Positions 16,220-23,753 of a stretch of 23,753 nucleotides of DNA are shown here, piece after piece. The DNA comes from a virus. Made by a program: the position numbers and the translations under genes. The stretch lies in the UHGV virus genome UHGV-0105281. One strand, written 5' to 3'. The notes under the pieces were generated by a model. It searched no databases. It was given only the letters and a program-made list of their open reading frames with translations, and was not told where the DNA came from. Position 1 is the stretch's first letter. Every line of letters begins with the position of its first letter.

Positions 16220-17599
16220 ATGGCTACGTGGCAACAGGGTATTAATTCTGGTGGTTTTCTGGCTGGAATTGGTGCGCAAAATGAGAATGCGCCAAAGGCA
16301 AGCGACATTAACGCAACGCTTGGTCTGATTCGCGAAAACAATGAACTGGCTCGATCAGGTGCAAATAACGTTGCTCTGACAGGTCTTCGTGGTCTGGCTG
16401 GAGTTGCTGATATTTATAAGCAGCAGCAACAGCAGGAGCGTAAAGCGGCATTCCAGAAAGGTTATGCGGATGCTTATGCGTCCGGCGACAGGGAGCAGAT
16501 GCGTAATCTTATTACAGCATTCCCCGAAGAGTTTGAGGAAGTCCGTAAAGGCATGGGGTATGTCGATGACGCCCAGCGGGATGATTTTGGCAATCTGGCG
16601 CTTAAGGCTCAGGTCGCTTCGTCGCTTGGTCCGGGTGCATTTGGCAGGTTCATGATGGATAACGAAAATGAGATGCGTCGTTTAGGTATCCCTCCAGAAA
16701 CTATTGCGGAAATGCAGGTTAATGACCCGCAGGGCTTCCAGCACTTCACAGGTAATCTGGCACTATTTTCTCTCGGTCATGAGAAGTACTTCGATATCAA
16801 AGATCGAATGGAGGGGCGTCGACTTGAAGGAGAAAGAAATCAGTTAACTGCTCGTGGTCAGGATATCACGATGCGCGGTCAGGATTTATCTGCTGCTACT
16901 GCACGGAGAGGTCAGGATTTAGCGATGCAGAGAGCATCAATGAAAGGGGCTGTTGGTAATAATGAGCGCACAGTTCAACTAGCAGACGGAAGAACTGTAA
17001 CCGTAGGCGGGAAGCTTCATGGTGCAGGTGCTAACGCGTTCTACGAAGGAATAGACAATGAGGGGAACATGGTTCGCGTTCCTGCTGGCTCTATTGCTGC
17101 TCCGGCCACGTCGGCAGCAAGCGCGCAGAATTACGCAATGAAGAAAGATCTTGATGCAATTTCTGGCGCATCAATTGACGATCTTGGCTTCATGACTGGC
17201 ATTACAGGCTCTTCAGGTTCTCCTGCTCTTGGTGCAGATATTCGTAGCCGTGCCTCTGGTGGTGATCAGAGGAAACTATACAACGCTGCACAGCGAATCC
17301 AAGGAAAGATGCAGAATCAGGGCATTGCAGCAGCCAGAGACATGGGGGCATCTGGTATCAACACCGTTGCAGAAGCAAAGATGTATTTTCAAGGTATGCC
17401 ACAGGTTGATTTCTCAAGCCCTGAAGCACTACAACAATCAATGCGCGACATTCAGCAATATACCGACAATTACAACCAGCAATATAACGTTAATGTCGGT
17501 AATGGCGGGAAGAAATCATCAAGGCAACAGCCAGCTACTCAGCAATCAGCAGGAGGTAGCTACACGTCAAAATCAGGCATTCAATTTACGGTGGAATGA
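16220..17599 (+). CDS. Ejection protein, gp20-like
   Basis: 459 aa in the gp20 position. Confidence 0.8.
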
Positions 17600-19425
17600 T
17601 GAAAGTAACTGCAAACGGTAAGACATTTACCTTTCCTGATGGTACGAGCACCGAAGATATTGGCACCGCCATTGATGAGTATTTTGCTGGTCAGGCTGTT
17701 CAGCAACAAACAGTTAATCAGGCCAATAATGCACCAACACAGGAAGAACCATCATTGATGCAACAAGCTGGCGATTGGCTCACTGGTGGTCAAAGTGCAG
17801 GGCAAATTGCAGAACAGGCTGGTCGTGGTCTGGTAAACATACCATTTGACGTATTGCAGGGTGGCGCAAGTCTGATTAATGCAATCAGCCAGGGGCTTGG
17901 TGGTCACAAGGTTTTGGACGATGTCTATCGTCCAGTAGATCGACCAACAGACCCTTATGCGCAAGCTGGAGAAACAATTGGCGGGTATTTAGTTCCAGGA
18001 GTTGGAACTGCAGGAAGCATGGCTATTGGATCACTGGCAGAAGCCGCAAACCAGAAAGGCGATTTCGCGCAAAATGCAGCCATAAACGCCGGAGTTAACC
18101 TTGCTGCTCAGGGTGTTCTTTCCGCAGCAGCAAAGGGAATAGGGCGTGGAATAACGGCTATAAAAGGCGATATCGCGCCAGAAGTAGCGAAAAAAATTGC
18201 CACCTCAGAATCGATGGGCGTGACACCAATGACATCTGATGTTATCCCGCCGAAAAATGCTTTCACTCGCGGCCTAACTCAGGATGCCGAGGGGGCTTTG
18301 CTCGGGACAGGCTCAAAGCGAGCTGAGCAGTATGCAAAAAGAAGTCAGCTAGTTAAAAAACAGCTTGAGAAATATGGTGAATATAGCCCATCAGTTGTTG
18401 TTGACGATCTGTATGGTTCTCTGAAGTCAAGGAAGGATTCGGCCGGAAGCGTTATTGAAGACATTACAGCCAAAATGGGAGACACACCAGTTGACACATC
18501 AAAATCTATTAAGGTTATCGACAACGTACTTACCAGAGCTAATAGGCTTGGGAAAGTGGCAAATAAGGATTTGATTCGCGGGTTATCCGATTTGCGAGAA
18601 GAACTTGCTAAACCAGATATAGATTTTGGTCTATTGAGAGAGTTGCGGTCAGCCTTGAGGGAAAGTATTCAGGGAGATGCCATGGTTTTTCCTAATAGCG
18701 CGAAAGCCGCAACTGATACCGTGGAGAGGGCAATGGGGGCAGATTTGAGGAATAACGCAGCGCGGTATTTGGGGGCTGGAGAGGCCGCCAGATACGTCAA
18801 GGCAAACTCTGACTACTCTAACGTCTTCAATAAGGTTCTTAATAAAAGGATTGCGAATAATCTCAACAAAGCTAAAAAAGAGTTTACTCCAGAGCTAATA
18901 AACAGTGTTGTATTCAGCAGAAAACCATCAGATATTAAGAGGATATGGCCAGCTCTTAGTGAAGATGGAAAGAACGCTATGCGTGCTGCTTATATCAGCA
19001 AGATTGCAGAAAAAGCAGGAGACTCGCCAACAAAATTTCTTACCGAGTTAAATAAGTTGAAGTCGCAATCTGACGGTCAGATCTATAACACGATATTCAG
19101 TGGGAGACACATGAAAGAGCTTGATGCTCTTCATGAAGTTCTACAGCAAACAGCAAGGTCGGACGCCGCAAATGTAGTAACACAGACAGGACAATCGCAA
19201 GCCAACAGGATAAGGACGATTGGCGCAACTGCGACTCTTGGCGTATCAATGGGGCTTGAGGCTGGTTTCGGTGCAATGATGCGCTTGTATGAGTCAAAAG
19301 CAGCAAGGAATGCTCTCTTACGTTTGGCAAACACCAAAGCAGGAACGCCAGCCTATGAAAGAGCATTAAGTAACGCTGCAAATGCCATCAGACCGCTGCT
19401 TGCCACTGAGGCAACACAGCAGTGA
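17596..19425 (+). CDS. Ejection protein, gp16-like
   Basis: 609 aa, same length as P22 gp16; ATGA overlap with gp20. Confidence 0.8.
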
Positions 19426-19442
19426 CTAAATGCCATGGATGG

Positions 19443-19631
19443 TTATTTCCTTAGCACATGAAACAATGTTTGCTTTAATTCCACCCATACAATTATGACC
19501 ACTATAGACAGACAAAAGAAACTGAATGCATTGGCATCACGATCGAAACCTTCTCCGGCACTAAATCCGTAAAAGGTCATAAAAAATATAAAAATTGCGC
19601 ACTTTGCAACGTTTACAAATTTTTTCTTCAC
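19443..19631 (-). CDS. Small 2-TM membrane protein (62 aa), downstream of the S24 repressor in the same operon
   Basis: GTG start preceded by a perfect AAGGAGG Shine-Dalgarno on the minus strand; two hydrophobic helices. Confidence 0.55.
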   Translation of the reverse strand: MKKKFVNVAKCAIFIFFMTFYGFSAGEGFDRDANAFSFFCLSIVVIIVWVELKQTLFHVLRK

Positions 19632-19691: not shown

Positions 19692-20333
19692 TCAAAGCAA
19701 CGGGATTTCAAGGTAAACTGCGGTTGCCAAAATACTAACATCTTCATTTCTAACAAGAATATTAGGATACATTGGGTTTAGGGATACTAGGTTTGTCTCT
19801 ATTTCACCAATGTAAACCTGTTTGAAGCTCAATATTTGCTCTTTATCCAATGATGCTATTACATAATCTTTGCTTTTAGCTTTTACTAGAGGGCTGAACG
19901 TGACAACCGATCCTCTGGGAAAGCTAATACCTGAACTTGTAGTCATAGCTTCACCTTCAATAGTCAATGCAAATGCAGAGTCACCAACATTGTATATTGC
20001 CGGATGAAATCTAGACGATGAATGTTCACCTGTGTTTAGGTAATGCATAACTTCATCTAGTTTGAGGATTGGTATTTGCTTTACCAGAACGTCAGGCATG
20101 ACGTTTTTTGTTCCCGGACCCTGACCTTCACCTAGAGCTAACCACTCAGCTGTAGTACCTAATGCGTTGGCTAATGCCTGCAATACCCGAAGCCGTGGTT
20201 TAGCCTCACCACCCTCGTATGCAGCTATTTGACGTTGAACAACACCAGCTAATTTTGACAACTGCGCCTGCGTCATACCCCTGGACTGTCTTGCCAGAGA
20301 TACTCTTGATGGGAATTGATCGTCAAAATTCAT
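19692..20333 (-). CDS. CI/LexA-like repressor (N-terminal HTH, C-terminal S24 peptidase fold) with Ser-to-Ala at the nucleophile position
   Basis: N-terminal HTH (GMTQAQLSKLAGVVQRQIAAYEGG); C-terminal S24-like region in which FALTIEGEAM aligns with LexA FLLRVSGMSM, placing Ala where the catalytic Ser sits (codon GCT confirmed in DNA); the Lys of the dyad is retained (SFKQV). Confidence 0.8.
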   Translation of the reverse strand: MNFDDQFPSRVSLARQSRGMTQAQLSKLAGVVQRQIAAYEGGEAKPRLRVLQALANALGTTAEWLALGEGQGPGTKNVMPDVLVKQIPILKLDEVMHYLNTGEHSSSRFHPAIYNVGDSAFALTIEGEAMTTSSGISFPRGSVVTFSPLVKAKSKDYVIASLDKEQILSFKQVYIGEIETNLVSLNPMYPNILVRNEDVSILATAVYLEIPLL

Positions 20334-20354
20334 TAGTTCACCATAAAAAATTCA

Positions 20355-20383
20355 TTGACTCATGCTGAGTGTGAGTGAATAAT
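20355..20383 (+). promoter_or_regulatory. Rightward promoter (TTGACT, 17-bp spacer, AATAAT) with overlapping operator-like palindrome and TGAGT repeats
   Basis: Promoter hexamers read directly; palindrome ACTCA-TGC-TGAGT at 20358-20370 and tandem TGAGTG at 20366-20377. Confidence 0.4.
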
Positions 20384-20432
20384 CAAACTACAAAAAGTGA
20401 GATTATGAGTTTTTTAAAAACAGGAGTGCATA

Positions 20433-20606
20433 ATGACTGAAAAGATATCTTCCATCAAGCCGCGTCAGGTTCGTTTTACAGAAAAGGTTGATTCACATAT
20501 CCGCGAATCAGCAAAAAGATGCCATAGGTCAATTCAGGCAGAGATAGCTTATCGAATGGAGTTATTGATGAAACTTGAGGCAAAGGGCGATGTTGTCATC
20601 CAATAA
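20433..20606 (+). CDS. Arc/Mnt-family ribbon-helix-helix regulator (57 aa)
   Basis: Not in the ORF track (under 60 aa). AGGAG RBS 6 nt upstream; PRQVRFTEKVDSHIRESAKRCHRSIQAEIAYRMELL parallels Arc PQFNLRWPREVLDLVRKVAEENGRSVNSEIYQRVMESF. Confidence 0.6.
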   Translation: MTEKISSIKPRQVRFTEKVDSHIRESAKRCHRSIQAEIAYRMELLMKLEAKGDVVIQ

Positions 20607-20679
20607 AAATAGTGAAGCCCGGCAGTGCGCGAACACAAACCGGGCCTCTATGTCAGTAACCGTATGCAAGGAAACTAAC

Positions 20680-21306
20680 ATGAATATTGTAGCAAAATCA
20701 GATTACAACTTCCACGGAGTTGAGTTGGTGCCCACCCGTGATATGCATGGTGTTTGGTTTACATCATCTAATATTGCATCTGCACTTAAATACGCAAATA
20801 GTCGTGCAGTAACAATGATTTATAACAAGTATAGCGATGAGTTTAGCGCCGGAATGACTCAGGTACTCGAAGTGAGTACCTCAGGAAATTATCGCAAAAA
20901 AGTGCGAGTTTTCTCACTACGCGGTGCCCACCTAATCGCGATGTTTGCTCGCACTCCGGTAGCCAAAGAGTTCCGCCGCTGGGTGCTGGATATTTTGGAT
21001 CGGCAGGCAGAATGCTCACCGATTGCAAAACAGTTTACTGACGAAGAACTGGTTAATCTCTGCTACTTACAATTGTGGATGGAGAAGAGTCAACAAATGT
21101 GCAAACACATCTACCCAGGAATGAAGCAAATTGGTTCTGAGCTTTCAGGAAGGATTTACGATATTGCATATGAGACTCGCTACATGTCAGAAGAAACCAA
21201 GAAATCACTTCTTCGTGAAATGAAGAATCTTGATACCAACAATTTTGTCGTAAAGAACGCTCAGCCAATGCTGGCAAAACTTCGCGGCGAGGAATGGATT
21301 CATTGA
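20680..21306 (+). CDS. Bro-N domain antirepressor-like protein
   Basis: 208 aa from ATG 20680 (AAGGA RBS); Bro-N-like N-terminus (FHGVELVPTRDMHGVWFTSSNIASALKY...SLRGAHLIAMFARTPVAKEFRRWVLDIL). The ORF-track start at 20575 overlaps the RHH gene. Confidence 0.7.
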   Translation: MNIVAKSDYNFHGVELVPTRDMHGVWFTSSNIASALKYANSRAVTMIYNKYSDEFSAGMTQVLEVSTSGNYRKKVRVFSLRGAHLIAMFARTPVAKEFRRWVLDILDRQAECSPIAKQFTDEELVNLCYLQLWMEKSQQMCKHIYPGMKQIGSELSGRIYDIAYETRYMSEETKKSLLREMKNLDTNNFVVKNAQPMLAKLRGEEWIH

Positions 21307-21321
21307 TTGGTGCGCCGGACT

Positions 21322-21400
21322 GCGCAAAAAGAAAACCGCCAGTGTGCTGCTGGCGGCCTATGTCACACCCTTACTACCACATAAGGAATGCCTAATGACT
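21322..21400 (-). ncRNA. Predicted sar-like antisense sRNA covering the RBS and start codon of the downstream Ant-like gene
   Basis: Minus-strand promoter inside the start of the Ant-like gene (-35 GTGACA at 21430-21435, 17-bp spacer, -10 TACATT at 21407-21412) and a minus-strand intrinsic terminator (hairpin 21336-21356 followed by a T-run at 21322-21335). Confidence 0.3.
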
Positions 21401-22123
21401 TTTAAGAATGTAGCAAACATCGGATCCGTTGTCACGGATAAAACCATTGATAGCCAGTACCTGTTAGAGATGGTCAATCATGCTCGTAGACAGTGCGGGG
21501 AAAAAGAAGTCCGAAATAACGACTTTATTGCACGCATTAAGGATGAACTTGAAGGTGAGCACTACGAAATTTTCGTAGTTCAAAAATCAAACAAGACAAC
21601 TTCTGAAAAAGTTGTTATGTCAATTAAGCAAGCCCTTCGAGTGGCTGCTCGTGAATCTAAAGCTGTTCGCCGCTCACTTGTAGACCAACTTGAAAGTATG
21701 CAAGAAGCGCACATTAAAAGCGGTAAATCGTCGAGTGGACTTGTTGAGTATCGCCAGGCGCGAACATTGAAAATGACGGTTGAAGCTGTTACCAATCTGT
21801 TCGATTTGATGCCAAATCTTGCGCCGGAAGCAAAGCAGACTGCGGCAGCAAGCATAATCAACCCGATCGTTGGTTTTAATGCAATACCTCTTCCAGCAAT
21901 AGAAGAGCATTACTACTCAGCAGGGGAGGTTGCAGAGCAGCTTGGAGTAACGGCCAACAAGATTGGTCGCATTGCTAACGCAAACAACCTCAAAACTGAG
22001 CAGTACGGGAAGTTCTTCCTGGATAAATCTGCACATTCCAGCAAACAGGTGGAAGCATTCCGCTACAATGCGGAAGGTGTTAAAGCTCTACAACACCTGA
22101 TTCATGGGAGTAATGTTGCATAA
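21395..22123 (+). CDS. Ant-like antirepressor (Rha/AntA-like N-terminus with KilA-C-like C-terminus)
   Basis: 242 aa from ATG 21395 (AAGGA RBS); N-terminal region resembles the pRha pattern and the C-terminal region resembles KilA-C (YYSAGEVAEQLGVTANKIGRIANANNLKTEQYGKFF). Confidence 0.55.
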   Translation: MTFKNVANIGSVVTDKTIDSQYLLEMVNHARRQCGEKEVRNNDFIARIKDELEGEHYEIFVVQKSNKTTSEKVVMSIKQALRVAARESKAVRRSLVDQLESMQEAHIKSGKSSSGLVEYRQARTLKMTVEAVTNLFDLMPNLAPEAKQTAAASIINPIVGFNAIPLPAIEEHYYSAGEVAEQLGVTANKIGRIANANNLKTEQYGKFFLDKSAHSSKQVEAFRYNAEGVKALQHLIHGSNVA

Positions 22124-22400: not shown

Positions 22401-22937
22401 TCAAACAACCCACCAGTTTGCCTGATTGGATACCAGCCTTGCAGTTTTTATGGAATTAATTATGCCATGCTCAAGAGCCTTGTTAGCATCCAAAATGGTC
22501 GAGTCTGCTATCAGGGATGCCCACCTAATATGGGTTCCGATGTCGATATTGAACGTCTCAACGAAGCGATCAAGATCGTTATCGAGGCATTTCCCGTACT
22601 CTCTCAATCTGGCATGGTCGGCGGCTGGGGAGGCAAAGCACCATAATAGAGGATGTAACAGGAATCTTGATAATGGGTTTGCGAAACGTTCTGAGCCAGC
22701 CAGGAAAACGATATTAGCTATGGATTCAACATTGCTTATGTTGTGAGTTCTAACGGTAACAGGGAGTGACTTAAGAAAGTTATACGCAGTAAAGCCAGCG
22801 GCTGTTTCCCCTCCCTGACTTGATATATGGATATTTAATTCAGTTGCGCCTTGAGATAATGCGGTGAGACAGTGGTTCTGAAGTTGCCCAACAGTGGCGG
22901 TGTTAACGGGGCATAAGAAATGAATTGTGTGCAGCAT
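22401..22937 (-). CDS. ClpP-fold (peptidase S14-like) serine protease, translationally coupled to mnt
   Basis: 178 aa; aligns by eye with E. coli ClpP over the catalytic core, with Ser (VESIANIVFLAG), His (FLLHPLL) and Asp (ADSTIL) all present; its ATG overlaps the mnt stop (TAATG). Confidence 0.7.
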   Translation of the reverse strand: MLHTIHFLCPVNTATVGQLQNHCLTALSQGATELNIHISSQGGETAAGFTAYNFLKSLPVTVRTHNISNVESIANIVFLAGSERFANPLSRFLLHPLLWCFASPAADHARLREYGKCLDNDLDRFVETFNIDIGTHIRWASLIADSTILDANKALEHGIINSIKTARLVSNQANWWVV

Positions 22938-23191
22938 TATTTATCATCCTTGCCATAAATCTTTTTAAGTGTCTCAAACACAACAGTCTTGAACTGCTCT
23001 GCTTGCTGATCAGCCAAGCGTTCAGCTTCGTCTCGATAGCCTGCAATCGGTGATGGTTCAGATAACGCCTTCTGTACGATCTGAACTAGTTCAGAATTGA
23101 TAGACCGACCATTCATTTTTGCCCTTTGGTCTAACTTTGCTTTTAACTCTGCTGGAAGGCGCAACTTAAATTGTGGGTCTTCTCTGGACAT
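22937..23191 (-). CDS. mnt: Mnt repressor (ribbon-helix-helix)
   Basis: 84 aa; MSREDPQFKLRLPAELKAKLDQRAKMNGRSINSELVQIVQKALSEPSPIAGYRDEAERLADQQ closely matches my recollection of P22 Mnt. Confidence 0.85.
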   Translation of the reverse strand: MSREDPQFKLRLPAELKAKLDQRAKMNGRSINSELVQIVQKALSEPSPIAGYRDEAERLADQQAEQFKTVVFETLKKIYGKDDK

Positions 23192-23210
23192 TTTATCACC
23201 ATGTTTTTTC

Positions 23211-23262
23211 TTGACAGTCTATAACGGTGATAGTACATTCTCAATTGAACCACGGTGGTTCA
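23211..23262 (+). promoter_or_regulatory. Pant-like promoter with candidate Arc operator in the spacer and Mnt-type 17-bp palindromic operator at the transcript start
   Basis: TTGACA (23211-23216), 17-bp spacer containing CTAT-aacggtg-ATAG, -10 TACATT (23234-23239), palindrome TGAACCAC-G-GTGGTTCA at 23246-23262. Confidence 0.6.
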
Positions 23263-23278
23263 TTGATTGGGAGAGGGT

Positions 23279-23437
23279 ATGCAAGGTGCAAGAAAAATGC
23301 CGCAGTTTAATTTGCGGATGCCTAAAGAAGTATTGGATTTGGTGCGCAAGGTAGCCAAAGAGAATGAGCGATCTGTTAACTCTGAGATTTACAAGCGAGT
23401 ATTGGACAGCCTGAAGAGGGAGGGGGTAATGGTATGA
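23279..23437 (+). CDS. arc: Arc repressor (ribbon-helix-helix)
   Basis: 52 aa, not in the ORF track; MQGARKMPQFNLRMPKEVLDLVRKVAKENERSVNSEIYKRVLDSLKREG closely matches my recollection of P22 Arc; GGGAGAGGG RBS. Confidence 0.85.
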   Translation: MQGARKMPQFNLRMPKEVLDLVRKVAKENERSVNSEIYKRVLDSLKREGVMV

Positions 23438-23703
23438 GGGTGTCATTGCTTGATCGTTCTTTACAATTTTTGTCTGGCGCAATCATTGTGGTTTGCTTGC
23501 TTGTGATTTTTACAGCGCTAATCAATATGTATCAATCAGGGGAACGATTGACAAAGACGATAGAGGAAAAGAAATCAGTCTCAAATTACGAAGTATCACA
23601 TGCACATAACGATTTAGTAGAAAGCCTTGACCGTATTAACAAGAGGCTTGACGAGACAAATATGCTACTTAAGCAAATTCAAAATGAAGTGGAAAAACGT
23701 TGA
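23434..23703 (+). CDS. Membrane-anchored coiled-coil protein (89 aa) in the position ant occupies in P22
   Basis: ATGA overlap with the arc stop; N-terminal TM helix (FLSGAIIVVCLLVIFTALINMY) and a charged helical C-terminus. Confidence 0.55.
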   Translation: MRVSLLDRSLQFLSGAIIVVCLLVIFTALINMYQSGERLTKTIEEKKSVSNYEVSHAHNDLVESLDRINKRLDETNMLLKQIQNEVEKR

Positions 23704-23753
23704 AGCCCCAACTGCTGGAACAGTCAGGGCTTCGGTATCAACAAATCGTCTTA

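Follow-up and report, generated by a model that had tools for sequence, protein, structure and literature searches.

Which regulatory circuit is served by the short gap between two divergent genes for putative DNA-binding proteins in the virus genome UHGV-0105281, and which of the two proteins reads the reiterated TGAGT words found there? The stretch of DNA analysed (the window, 23,753 nucleotides, nt) is that of a P22-like (Lederbergvirus) E. coli prophage. The gap, 99 base pairs (bp) at positions 20334-20432, separates the start codons of a minus-strand gene (19692-20333), which encodes a protein with a helix-turn-helix (HTH) domain and an S24 fold, and of a plus-strand gene (20433-20606), which encodes a ribbon-helix-helix (RHH) protein. 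An initial annotation had seen here a multi-operator array similar to the OR region of phage lambda, serving the S24 repressor and/or the RHH protein. Comparison with homologous loci makes it likely, in our judgement, that the gap controls a self-contained antirepressor cassette similar to the immI region of phage P22, in which the repressor Mnt would be replaced by a lambda/434-type HTH repressor with a catalytically dead S24 fold. The coordinates of the features discussed are collected in Table 1.

Homologous loci were identified by searches with the repressor and RHH proteins in viral, genome and metagenome collections, which gave more than 100 loci and about 24 intergenic classes less than 80% identical to each other. 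The intergenic length across the cassettes is 96-105 bp. A TTGAC(T/A) element is located 20-23 nt from the repressor start codon in every class (24/24), with a -10 element after 16-18 bp and a further 47-53 nt to the RHH start. The promoter of the window, TTGACT with a 17-bp spacer and AATAAT, lies exactly where it had been annotated; it has 10 of 12 consensus matches in a promoter scan and is the only plus-strand site of this kind between 19400 and 21400. A rightward promoter is therefore strongly supported by conservation, and we read it as an analogue of P22 Pant that serves the RHH gene and, beyond it, a sar-like element and the genes for the antirepressors. Regarding translation signals, an equivalent of the repressor Shine-Dalgarno sequence, AAGGTG or TGGTG, is kept in all cassettes, and the position of this sequence in the window means that the repressor transcript must start to the right of approximately 20350.

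The words themselves are frequent in the gap. There are four ACTCA/TGAGT words in the 99 bp, compared with 0.17 expected from the window-wide frequency, which makes it the densest spot of the window, and an exact ACTCA-N3-TGAGT match occurs only once in the whole 23.7 kb, at the palindrome that we call O1. Nevertheless, at least four copies of some non-trivial 5-mer, counted together with its reverse complement, were obtained in 7.9% of dinucleotide-preserving shuffles of the region (p≈0.08) and in 36 of 947 real 99-bp segments, and at least four short-loop 5-bp palindromes appeared in around 3% of the shuffles. In the window alone the words and palindromes are thus marginally above chance, the word having been picked after looking, and the weight of the argument rests on the homologous loci.

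Five relatives of the window locus at intermediate divergence (L102, L104, L106, L107 and L108, with repressors 92, 81, 76, 71 and 49% identical, respectively) can be aligned to the region without gaps. The segment CATTGACTCAT is invariant in all five. The palindrome had been reported as overlapping the -35 element and the spacer, and its position and outer bases are indeed kept in relatives. The right half of O1 is retained in four of the five, as ACTCAT-T-ATGAGA, ACTCAT-C-ATGAGA, ACTCAT-A-ATGAGT and ACTCA-TCT-TGAGC; in these four the centre falls on the same base as in the window, the outer bases are kept and one to three central bases vary, which gives a family form ACTCAT-N-ATGAGx. Near-identical copies differ from each other at few sites in the region, and several of these also fall in the O1 centre (TGC, TAC, TAG, TCC). 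This pattern of conserved outer bases and a variable centre is what would be expected of an operator for a dimeric HTH protein of the 434 type; 434 operators are 14 bp long.

The sequence of the downstream block, O2, is identical in the window, L102, L104 and L107, while the 12 bp between the -10 element and the block are unrelated in these loci; the equivalent in L106 is ATGTGAGTATGTGAGT, with TGAG at the same two offsets. The O2 words of the window are TGAGA (20398-20402) and TGAGT (20406-20410), so the further TGAG copies noted earlier at 20396-20410 are present and lie within a conserved block. A similar direct repeat with an 8-bp period, built from its own word TGTGA, is found in L186 (TTGTGATG TTGTGATA). 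The tandem TGAGTG repeat fared less well: both copies are present in the window, but the second is shared only by near-identical copies, with unrelated sequence in its place in L102, L104, L106, L107 and L108, which makes a constraint on it improbable. Overall, the comparison of related loci, which the initial annotation had suggested as a check, supports the promoter, the 13-bp palindrome and the block 20396-20413, and not the second TGAGTG.

Beyond these relatives, the words vary from class to class. In what follows, offsets (+n) take the first T of TTGAC (20355 in the window) as their origin. An inverted copy of the bases +3 to +9 recurs at +37 to +55; the symmetry centre is +24 for seven classes and falls between +25 and +29 for six others. 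The 7-mer that follows TTG in a given locus matches its own leader at six or more of seven positions in 14 of 17 loci, compared with 8 of 86 comparisons made with the words of other classes. The words are ACTCAT (window, L028, L032, L092, L098, L108), ACTCAAT (L033, L040, L156), CACAC (L046-L049), ACACAT (L051-L053, L186), CATATGAA (L043), CACATGAA (L044) and, in more distant relatives, CTTCAT. The leader word changes along with the O1 word at the same offsets, as TGAG, TGTG, GGTGTG, ATTGAG or TTCATATG. Many classes also form a spacer palindrome from their own word, for instance TTGACAC-ATAAA-GTGTCAA in L096 (centre +9) and GACACA-C-TGTGTC in L046 (+8), O1 of the window being centred at +9; such palindromes of other words, in L096, L046 and L047, have centres at +8 to +10.5. 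Among distant cassette relatives (L210, L209, L212, L213 and L181), which have other words and a third RHH type, L210 (upstream of 1501) carries five AACTCAT copies in a 121-bp region, and L209, L212 and L213 carry CTTCAT/ATGAAG palindromes, in L209 with the -35 element at the centre (CTTCAT-TGACA-ATGAAG).

Which protein the words follow can be judged from natural chimeras, loci in which the two genes have been reassorted. The RHH proteins of L032 and L047 are identical at 55 of 57 residues, and those of L098 and L096 at 56 of 57, yet the words differ (ACTCAT vs CACAC and ACTCAT vs ACAC/ACAGA, respectively), as do the repressors. Conversely, in L106 an RHH protein of a different type, only 39% identical, accompanies a repressor and words that are window-like. 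RHH beta-strand types cut across the words in general. In partial Mantel tests, the similarity of intergenic cores was correlated with that of repressor N-terminal domains given RHH (r=0.41, a value reached in 0 of 5000 permutations), and not with that of RHH proteins given the repressor (r=0.085, p=0.10). For X, the first position of the recognition helix in G(V/I)V-X-RQIAAYE, all 9 classes with Arg have ACA-type half-sites, and of the 15 with Gln, His, Ala, Pro or Ser, 14 have ACT-type half-sites and one does not (Fisher p=7.6e-6, not corrected for phylogeny). Both a conserved position and co-variation between site and DNA-binding domain, as in the operator of a sequence-specific repressor, are therefore found. 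As words and repressor covary while near-identical RHH proteins adjoin different words, the ACTCA(T)/(A)TGAGT words are most likely locus-specific recognition words of the HTH repressor, an assignment that is correlative. Of the two candidates first proposed as binding protein, the S24-fold repressor is thus the one tracked by the words and the RHH protein is not.

The repressor itself combines two known folds. Its PDB matches are to the C-terminal domain of lambda CI and to the N-terminal domain of the 434 repressor, the latter being the most similar to its own N-terminal domain. The S24 domain has changed at residues ~125-131, around the nucleophile, and at ~86-99, the cleavage linker. The equivalent of the nucleophile Ser149 is Ala (LTIEGEAMT aligned to LEVEGNSMT of lambda; GEAM vs GDSM/GNSM), while the Lys general base is kept (SFKQV vs TFKKL of lambda). 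The segment at the lambda cleavage column is QIPILKLDEVMHYL, which has no Ala-Gly; this column is less certain than that of the nucleophile. Ala-Gly was likewise absent at the lambda-aligned column from all of the ~40 family members tabulated from the loci, many of which have HVQAR or HVQS; one protein outside this table (P0016, alignment A1) shows, by eye, an Ala-Gly in the linker segment. The nucleophile Ser has been lost in several family members (window, L102, L106, L107 and L032); L104 is a member that retains it. The name S24 repressor used at first is consequently appropriate for the fold and not for the catalytic residues: of the features of the self-cleaving lambda CI/LexA (S24) repressors, the HTH domain and the S24 fold are present, and the Ser nucleophile and an Ala-Gly (or Cys-Gly) bond at the aligned column of the linker are missing. 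RecA-stimulated self-cleavage is unlikely, and probably the C-terminal domain was kept for dimerisation and cooperativity. Since the Ser nucleophile and an aligned Ala-Gly are absent, the protein is probably a SOS-independent maintenance repressor, as Mnt is. No LexA box (CTGT-N8-ACAG-like) was seen when the region was read by eye, without a formal scan.

The RHH protein is more difficult to place. A profile comparison with the window's own Arc gave E=4.4e-5, with a probability of only 69%; other matches are weak (AmrZ, CopG and Arc chains; Pfam ParD_like at 8e-4, below the cut-off; phrog_10182, of unknown function). AlphaFold2, run on the single sequence as a monomer, gave one long helix; for a protein that must dimerise this says nothing about the fold. 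No intergenic sequence segregates with RHH type, and the region of L106 is window-like up to the start codon despite its different RHH protein.

Three other explanations of the words deserve to be weighed. The palindrome and repeats could be chance features of an A+T-rich intergenic region, without binding function; the weak single-sequence statistics, the many 5-bp inverted repeats found in each of the intergenic regions and the non-conserved second TGAGTG would fit this, but it is largely refuted by the comparison and hardly credible, given that the position and outer bases of O1 are kept at 49-92% repressor identity, that O2 is identical in four loci with differing flanks and that words co-vary across 24 classes. 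Alternatively, the TGAGT words could be the operator of the Arc-like RHH protein, which would autoregulate its operon like Arc, whose operator Oarc lies between the -35 and -10 elements of Pant; the HTH repressor would then bind elsewhere. The direct repeats of O2, short and with an 8-bp period, are of a kind typical for RHH proteins (MetJ, for example), the RHH protein resembles Arc and its gene is the first of the operon, as arc is, and the canonical immI region of the window also has an inverted repeat in the spacer. Furthermore, P22 Arc represses the divergent, overlapping promoters Pant and Pmnt from an operator that overlaps both (PMC2724298), and O1 stands in the equivalent place. We nevertheless regard this alternative as improbable. 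RHH proteins 96-98% identical, with identical beta-strands, adjoin different words in the two pairs described above; L106 and L186 have similar RHH beta-strands with TGAGT and TGTGA words, respectively; and both the combination found in L106 and the low partial correlation between core and RHH oppose it.

It is also conceivable that only O1 is a repressor site and that 20396-20413 is conserved as the leftward repressor promoter or as a signal in the 5' leader of the RHH mRNA. The block holds a possible leftward -10 element, CATAAT, the reverse complement of 20404-20409, which belongs to a TGCACT-17-CATAAT sequence (-10 at 20409-20404) with 8 of 12 consensus matches, conserved in the window, L102, L104 and L107. 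The repressor gene has a Shine-Dalgarno sequence and so needs a promoter inside the 99 bp, and the words of the block are direct repeats instead of a palindrome. On the other hand, the block's word varies among classes in step with that of O1, which a promoter hexamer would not do, and no minus-strand promoter position is common to the classes. We consider this explanation doubtful, and the two roles are not mutually exclusive, as an operator over the repressor's own promoter is expected for autoregulation. The candidates in the window for a leftward promoter, TGCACT-17-CATAAT and a GATTAT overlapping the rightward -10 element, were both rejected as unconvincing.

Returning to the HTH repressor as the protein that reads both sites, several observations weigh against it. 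The loci are phylogenetically related, so that the Fisher and Mantel values overstate independence. L043 and L044 have Gln at the helix position and CATATGAA or CACATGAA words, and L107 has no right half of O1. The words of O2 are direct and not inverted, which is unusual for an HTH dimer, and the half-site spacing of the spacer palindromes differs among classes (centres +8 to +13, loops of 1-8 bp). The conservation of the O2 block could instead serve a leftward promoter or the 5' untranslated region, and a repressor promoter shared by the classes could not be located on the minus strand. Lastly, a separate Arc-type operator was not found in the region, so a part of the predicted circuit is missing.

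With the HTH repressor assigned to the words, a simple mechanism can be proposed. Repressor dimers on O1 would keep RNA polymerase from the -35 element; a second repressor unit would sit on the two direct TGAG words of O2, probably aided by contacts between C-terminal domains as in lambda CI, and binding at O2 may autoregulate the overlapping leftward promoter of the repressor gene. The repressor, probably insensitive to the SOS response, would keep the antirepressor silent in the lysogen. Diversification of the words among cassettes would set different immunity specificities, each class-specific against superinfecting relatives.

Some further palindromes were considered. A leader hairpin of the window, AAACT-N18-AGTTT, is not conserved in L102, L104 and L107 and was dismissed as a chance feature, of RNA or DNA, given this non-conservation; a palindrome centred at +42 to +45 occurs in many cassettes, with arms that are not conserved. 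Inside the antirepressor gene, at 20862-20880, there is a 7-5-7 palindrome (GGTACTC-GAAGT-GAGTACC) containing a copy of the O1 pattern with one mismatch. A distal operator at this copy (ACTCGAAGTGAGT, 20865-20877) was rejected, since matches with one mismatch occur at chance frequency in the window.

The operon to the right of the gap agrees with an immI-type organization, in which an antirepressor gene of the ant family lies under the predicted control of the region. The first such gene of the window encodes a BRO-N domain and the P22 antirepressor C-terminal domain, and relatives have other Ant types at this position, including P22_AR_N with P22_AR_C. In the cassettes examined, the stretch from the RHH stop codon (TAAAAA) to the start of the antirepressor gene holds a GC-rich hairpin, followed on the minus strand by a T-run. 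The fold of the minus strand of the window from 20700 to 20600 has z=-5.0. Across 17 cassettes the hairpin is kept, and 6 of its 10 pairs show compensatory changes. At this position the Rfam family sar (RF00262) is found above the gathering score in L104 (77.7 bits), L102 and L098; the element of the window does not reach E=1 for RF00262 and is below the Rfam sar threshold. In our reading, an antisense RNA with its terminator at 20603-20648 would cover the ribosome-binding site of the antirepressor gene. The second antirepressor gene is preceded by a hairpin and T-run of its own (21333-21359, with an A-run at 21326-21335), terminator-like on the minus strand. Both genes thus have an upstream GC hairpin followed by CTATGTCA and a Shine-Dalgarno sequence, with a minus-strand T-run after the hairpin, and both hairpins look like terminators of sar-type antisense RNAs.

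Table 1. Features of the divergent region, of the cassette and of the neighbouring canonical immI region in the window.
Feature	Position	Strand	Description
Repressor gene, 213 amino acids	19692-20333	-	Pfam HTH_3 (9e-13) and Peptidase_S24 (1e-12)
Shine-Dalgarno sequence of repressor gene	20338-20344	-	TCACCAT on plus strand, ATGGTGA on minus strand; read from sequence
Rightward sigma-70-type promoter	20355-20383	+	TTGACT 20355-20360, 17-bp spacer, AATAAT 20378-20383; predicted start near 20390
O1 palindrome, ACTCA-TGC-TGAGT	20358-20370		ACTCATGCTGAGT; 13 bp, perfect 5-3-5, centre 20364; overlaps -35 and spacer
Tandem TGAGTG TGAGTG	20366-20377		Second copy 20372-20377
O2 block, AGTGAGATTATGAGTTTT	20396-20413		Two TGAG words in direct orientation, 8-bp period; about +8 to +21 counted from the predicted start
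Shine-Dalgarno sequence of RHH gene, AGGAG	20422-20426	+	Read from sequence; kept in relatives
Arc-like RHH protein gene, 57 amino acids	20433-20606	+	Opens the operon; compared by profile with Arc of the window
sar-like element	20603-20648	-	GC-rich hairpin GAAGCCCGG ... CCGGGCCTC at 20614-20648, then T-run 20603-20612
Antirepressor-family gene	20680-21306	+	BRO-N and P22_AR_C (Pfam); PHROG anti-repressor Ant, 2e-53
Second antirepressor-family gene	21395-22123	+	phrog_1726 (PHROG, 2e-100)
Canonical immI region	22937-23753		About 2.5 kb downstream of the cassette; Mnt, Arc, 89-amino-acid open reading frame, sar RNA
Mnt	22937-23191	-	
Arc	23267-23437		
sar RNA	23698-23753	-	Rfam, 51 bits; cut off by the window end

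The cassette, which is conserved and mobile, is located just after the gene-16 homologue (17596-19425). This is the variable 'ant moron' slot of P22-like phages, between gene 16 and the tailspike gene (PMC2629481). The 1.8 kb around the gap shares 98% identity with phage JEP4, in which it is flanked by the last DNA-transfer gene and the tailspike gene. Of 5426 complete E. coli genomes, 27 carry the form of the window (at least 80% of the 1.8 kb). More distant forms are present in Yersinia, Klebsiella, Pantoea, Rosenbergiella, Lonsdalea, Morganella and Xenorhabdus, next to unrelated tail genes (tape-measure, tailspike, baseplate) and in phages of different tail types. The gene order in the loci examined is the repressor gene, a divergent gene for an RHH protein of 56-58 amino acids and then one or two antirepressor-family genes. 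The recombination junctions in L032/L047, L098/L096 and L106 lie at or beside the conserved CATGAGGTGAATAATG around the RHH start, suggesting that the cassette is built from two exchangeable units, the repressor gene with the intergenic region and the RHH gene with the antirepressor. In the literature searched we found no description of this cassette, only the general 'ant moron' concept (PMC2629481). On the strand of the repressor gene and 60 bp downstream of it, a small open reading frame (19443-19631) encodes a hydrophobic protein of 62 amino acids (phrog_21338, function unknown), which may be co-transcribed with the repressor gene from the prophage.

The window also contains a canonical immI region with mnt, arc and sar. 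Its promoter, TTGACA-17-TACATT (23211-23239), has a CTAT-N7-ATAG inverted repeat in the spacer and is followed by a perfect 17-bp palindrome, TGAACCACGGTGGTTCA (23246-23262), which we read as the Mnt operator; it is centred at +43 from the -35 element, about the same offset as that of O2. As the cassette lies beside this mnt-arc-sar region, the prophage carries two separately controlled antirepressor switches in tandem. A gene for a ClpP-family (S14) protease-like protein of 178 amino acids (22401-22937, minus strand) starts at the mnt stop codon; it is apparently translationally coupled to mnt and, for an immI region, is an unusual passenger.

Antirepressor modules decide the timing of the prophage lytic switch and the joint induction of co-resident prophages, and the comparison suggests that a maintenance repressor of another class can take its place in the immI logic. 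The paired repressor alleles and words could be used to test recognition rules of 434-like HTH domains and to build orthogonal repressor-promoter pairs. A bolder proposal, which we hold to be unlikely, is that the cassette is a portable second immunity system with a non-cleaving CI/434-type repressor, whose helix residue and word have co-diversified into at least six classes (ACTCAT, ACTCAAT, CACAC, ACACAT, CATATGAA and CTTCAT), and with an Arc-like protein for which the region holds no operator. That protein would then act otherwise, for instance by partnering the repressor, at the sar-like promoter or on the antirepressor directly. If true, such a system would offer a natural specificity series for one HTH scaffold and a new role for an Arc-family protein.

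Among known systems, LexA-controlled prophage antirepressors (Gifsy phages, coliphage 186 Tum, SPC32H Ant) are silenced by a repressor of the HTH or S24 family at the promoter; the cassette differs from these in encoding its own repressor, seemingly unable to self-cleave. The lambda CI and 434 systems share with it the 434-like HTH domain, the lambda-CI-like C-terminal domain, the divergent arrangement of a repressor gene and an operon presumably repressed by its product, the short palindromic operators with conserved outer bases and a variable centre, and allele-specific words as in heteroimmune lambdoid phages. The OR-type array first proposed does not hold, however. The lambda OR tripartite operator has three palindromes of ~17 bp, ~23-24 bp apart, between divergent promoters, whereas the gap has one 13-bp palindrome and one leader site, the second being a direct repeat, and not three evenly spaced sites. 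Moreover, the operon that we take as the target encodes antirepressors and not lytic functions, in an accessory cassette of the late region that is not the primary immunity.

The closest parallel is P22 immI itself. Both have the slot after the gene-16 homologue, a divergent repressor gene, a gap of ~75-100 bp that carries a strong promoter directed rightward, an RHH gene, whose product in the cassette is tentatively Arc-like, in first place and antirepressor-family genes downstream, as well as the GC hairpin with a minus-strand T-run between RHH and antirepressor genes, recognized by Rfam as sar in L104, L102 and L098 and not in the window. The canonical immI region of the same window approximately matches O1 and O2 in its operator positions, in the spacer and at about +8 to +24, and shares TCACCAT at the repressor start. 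The differences concern the proteins and their words: the divergent repressor of P22 is the RHH tetramer Mnt, and the 213-amino-acid HTH and S24-fold protein of the cassette does not belong with Mnt; the words are unrelated to Omnt and Oarc, with one repressor-following word shared by the spacer and leader sites; and the first antirepressor has BRO-N in place of P22_AR_N and is followed by a second antirepressor gene. By this comparison, the layout is a portable look-alike of the P22 immI switch and not a fundamentally new one.

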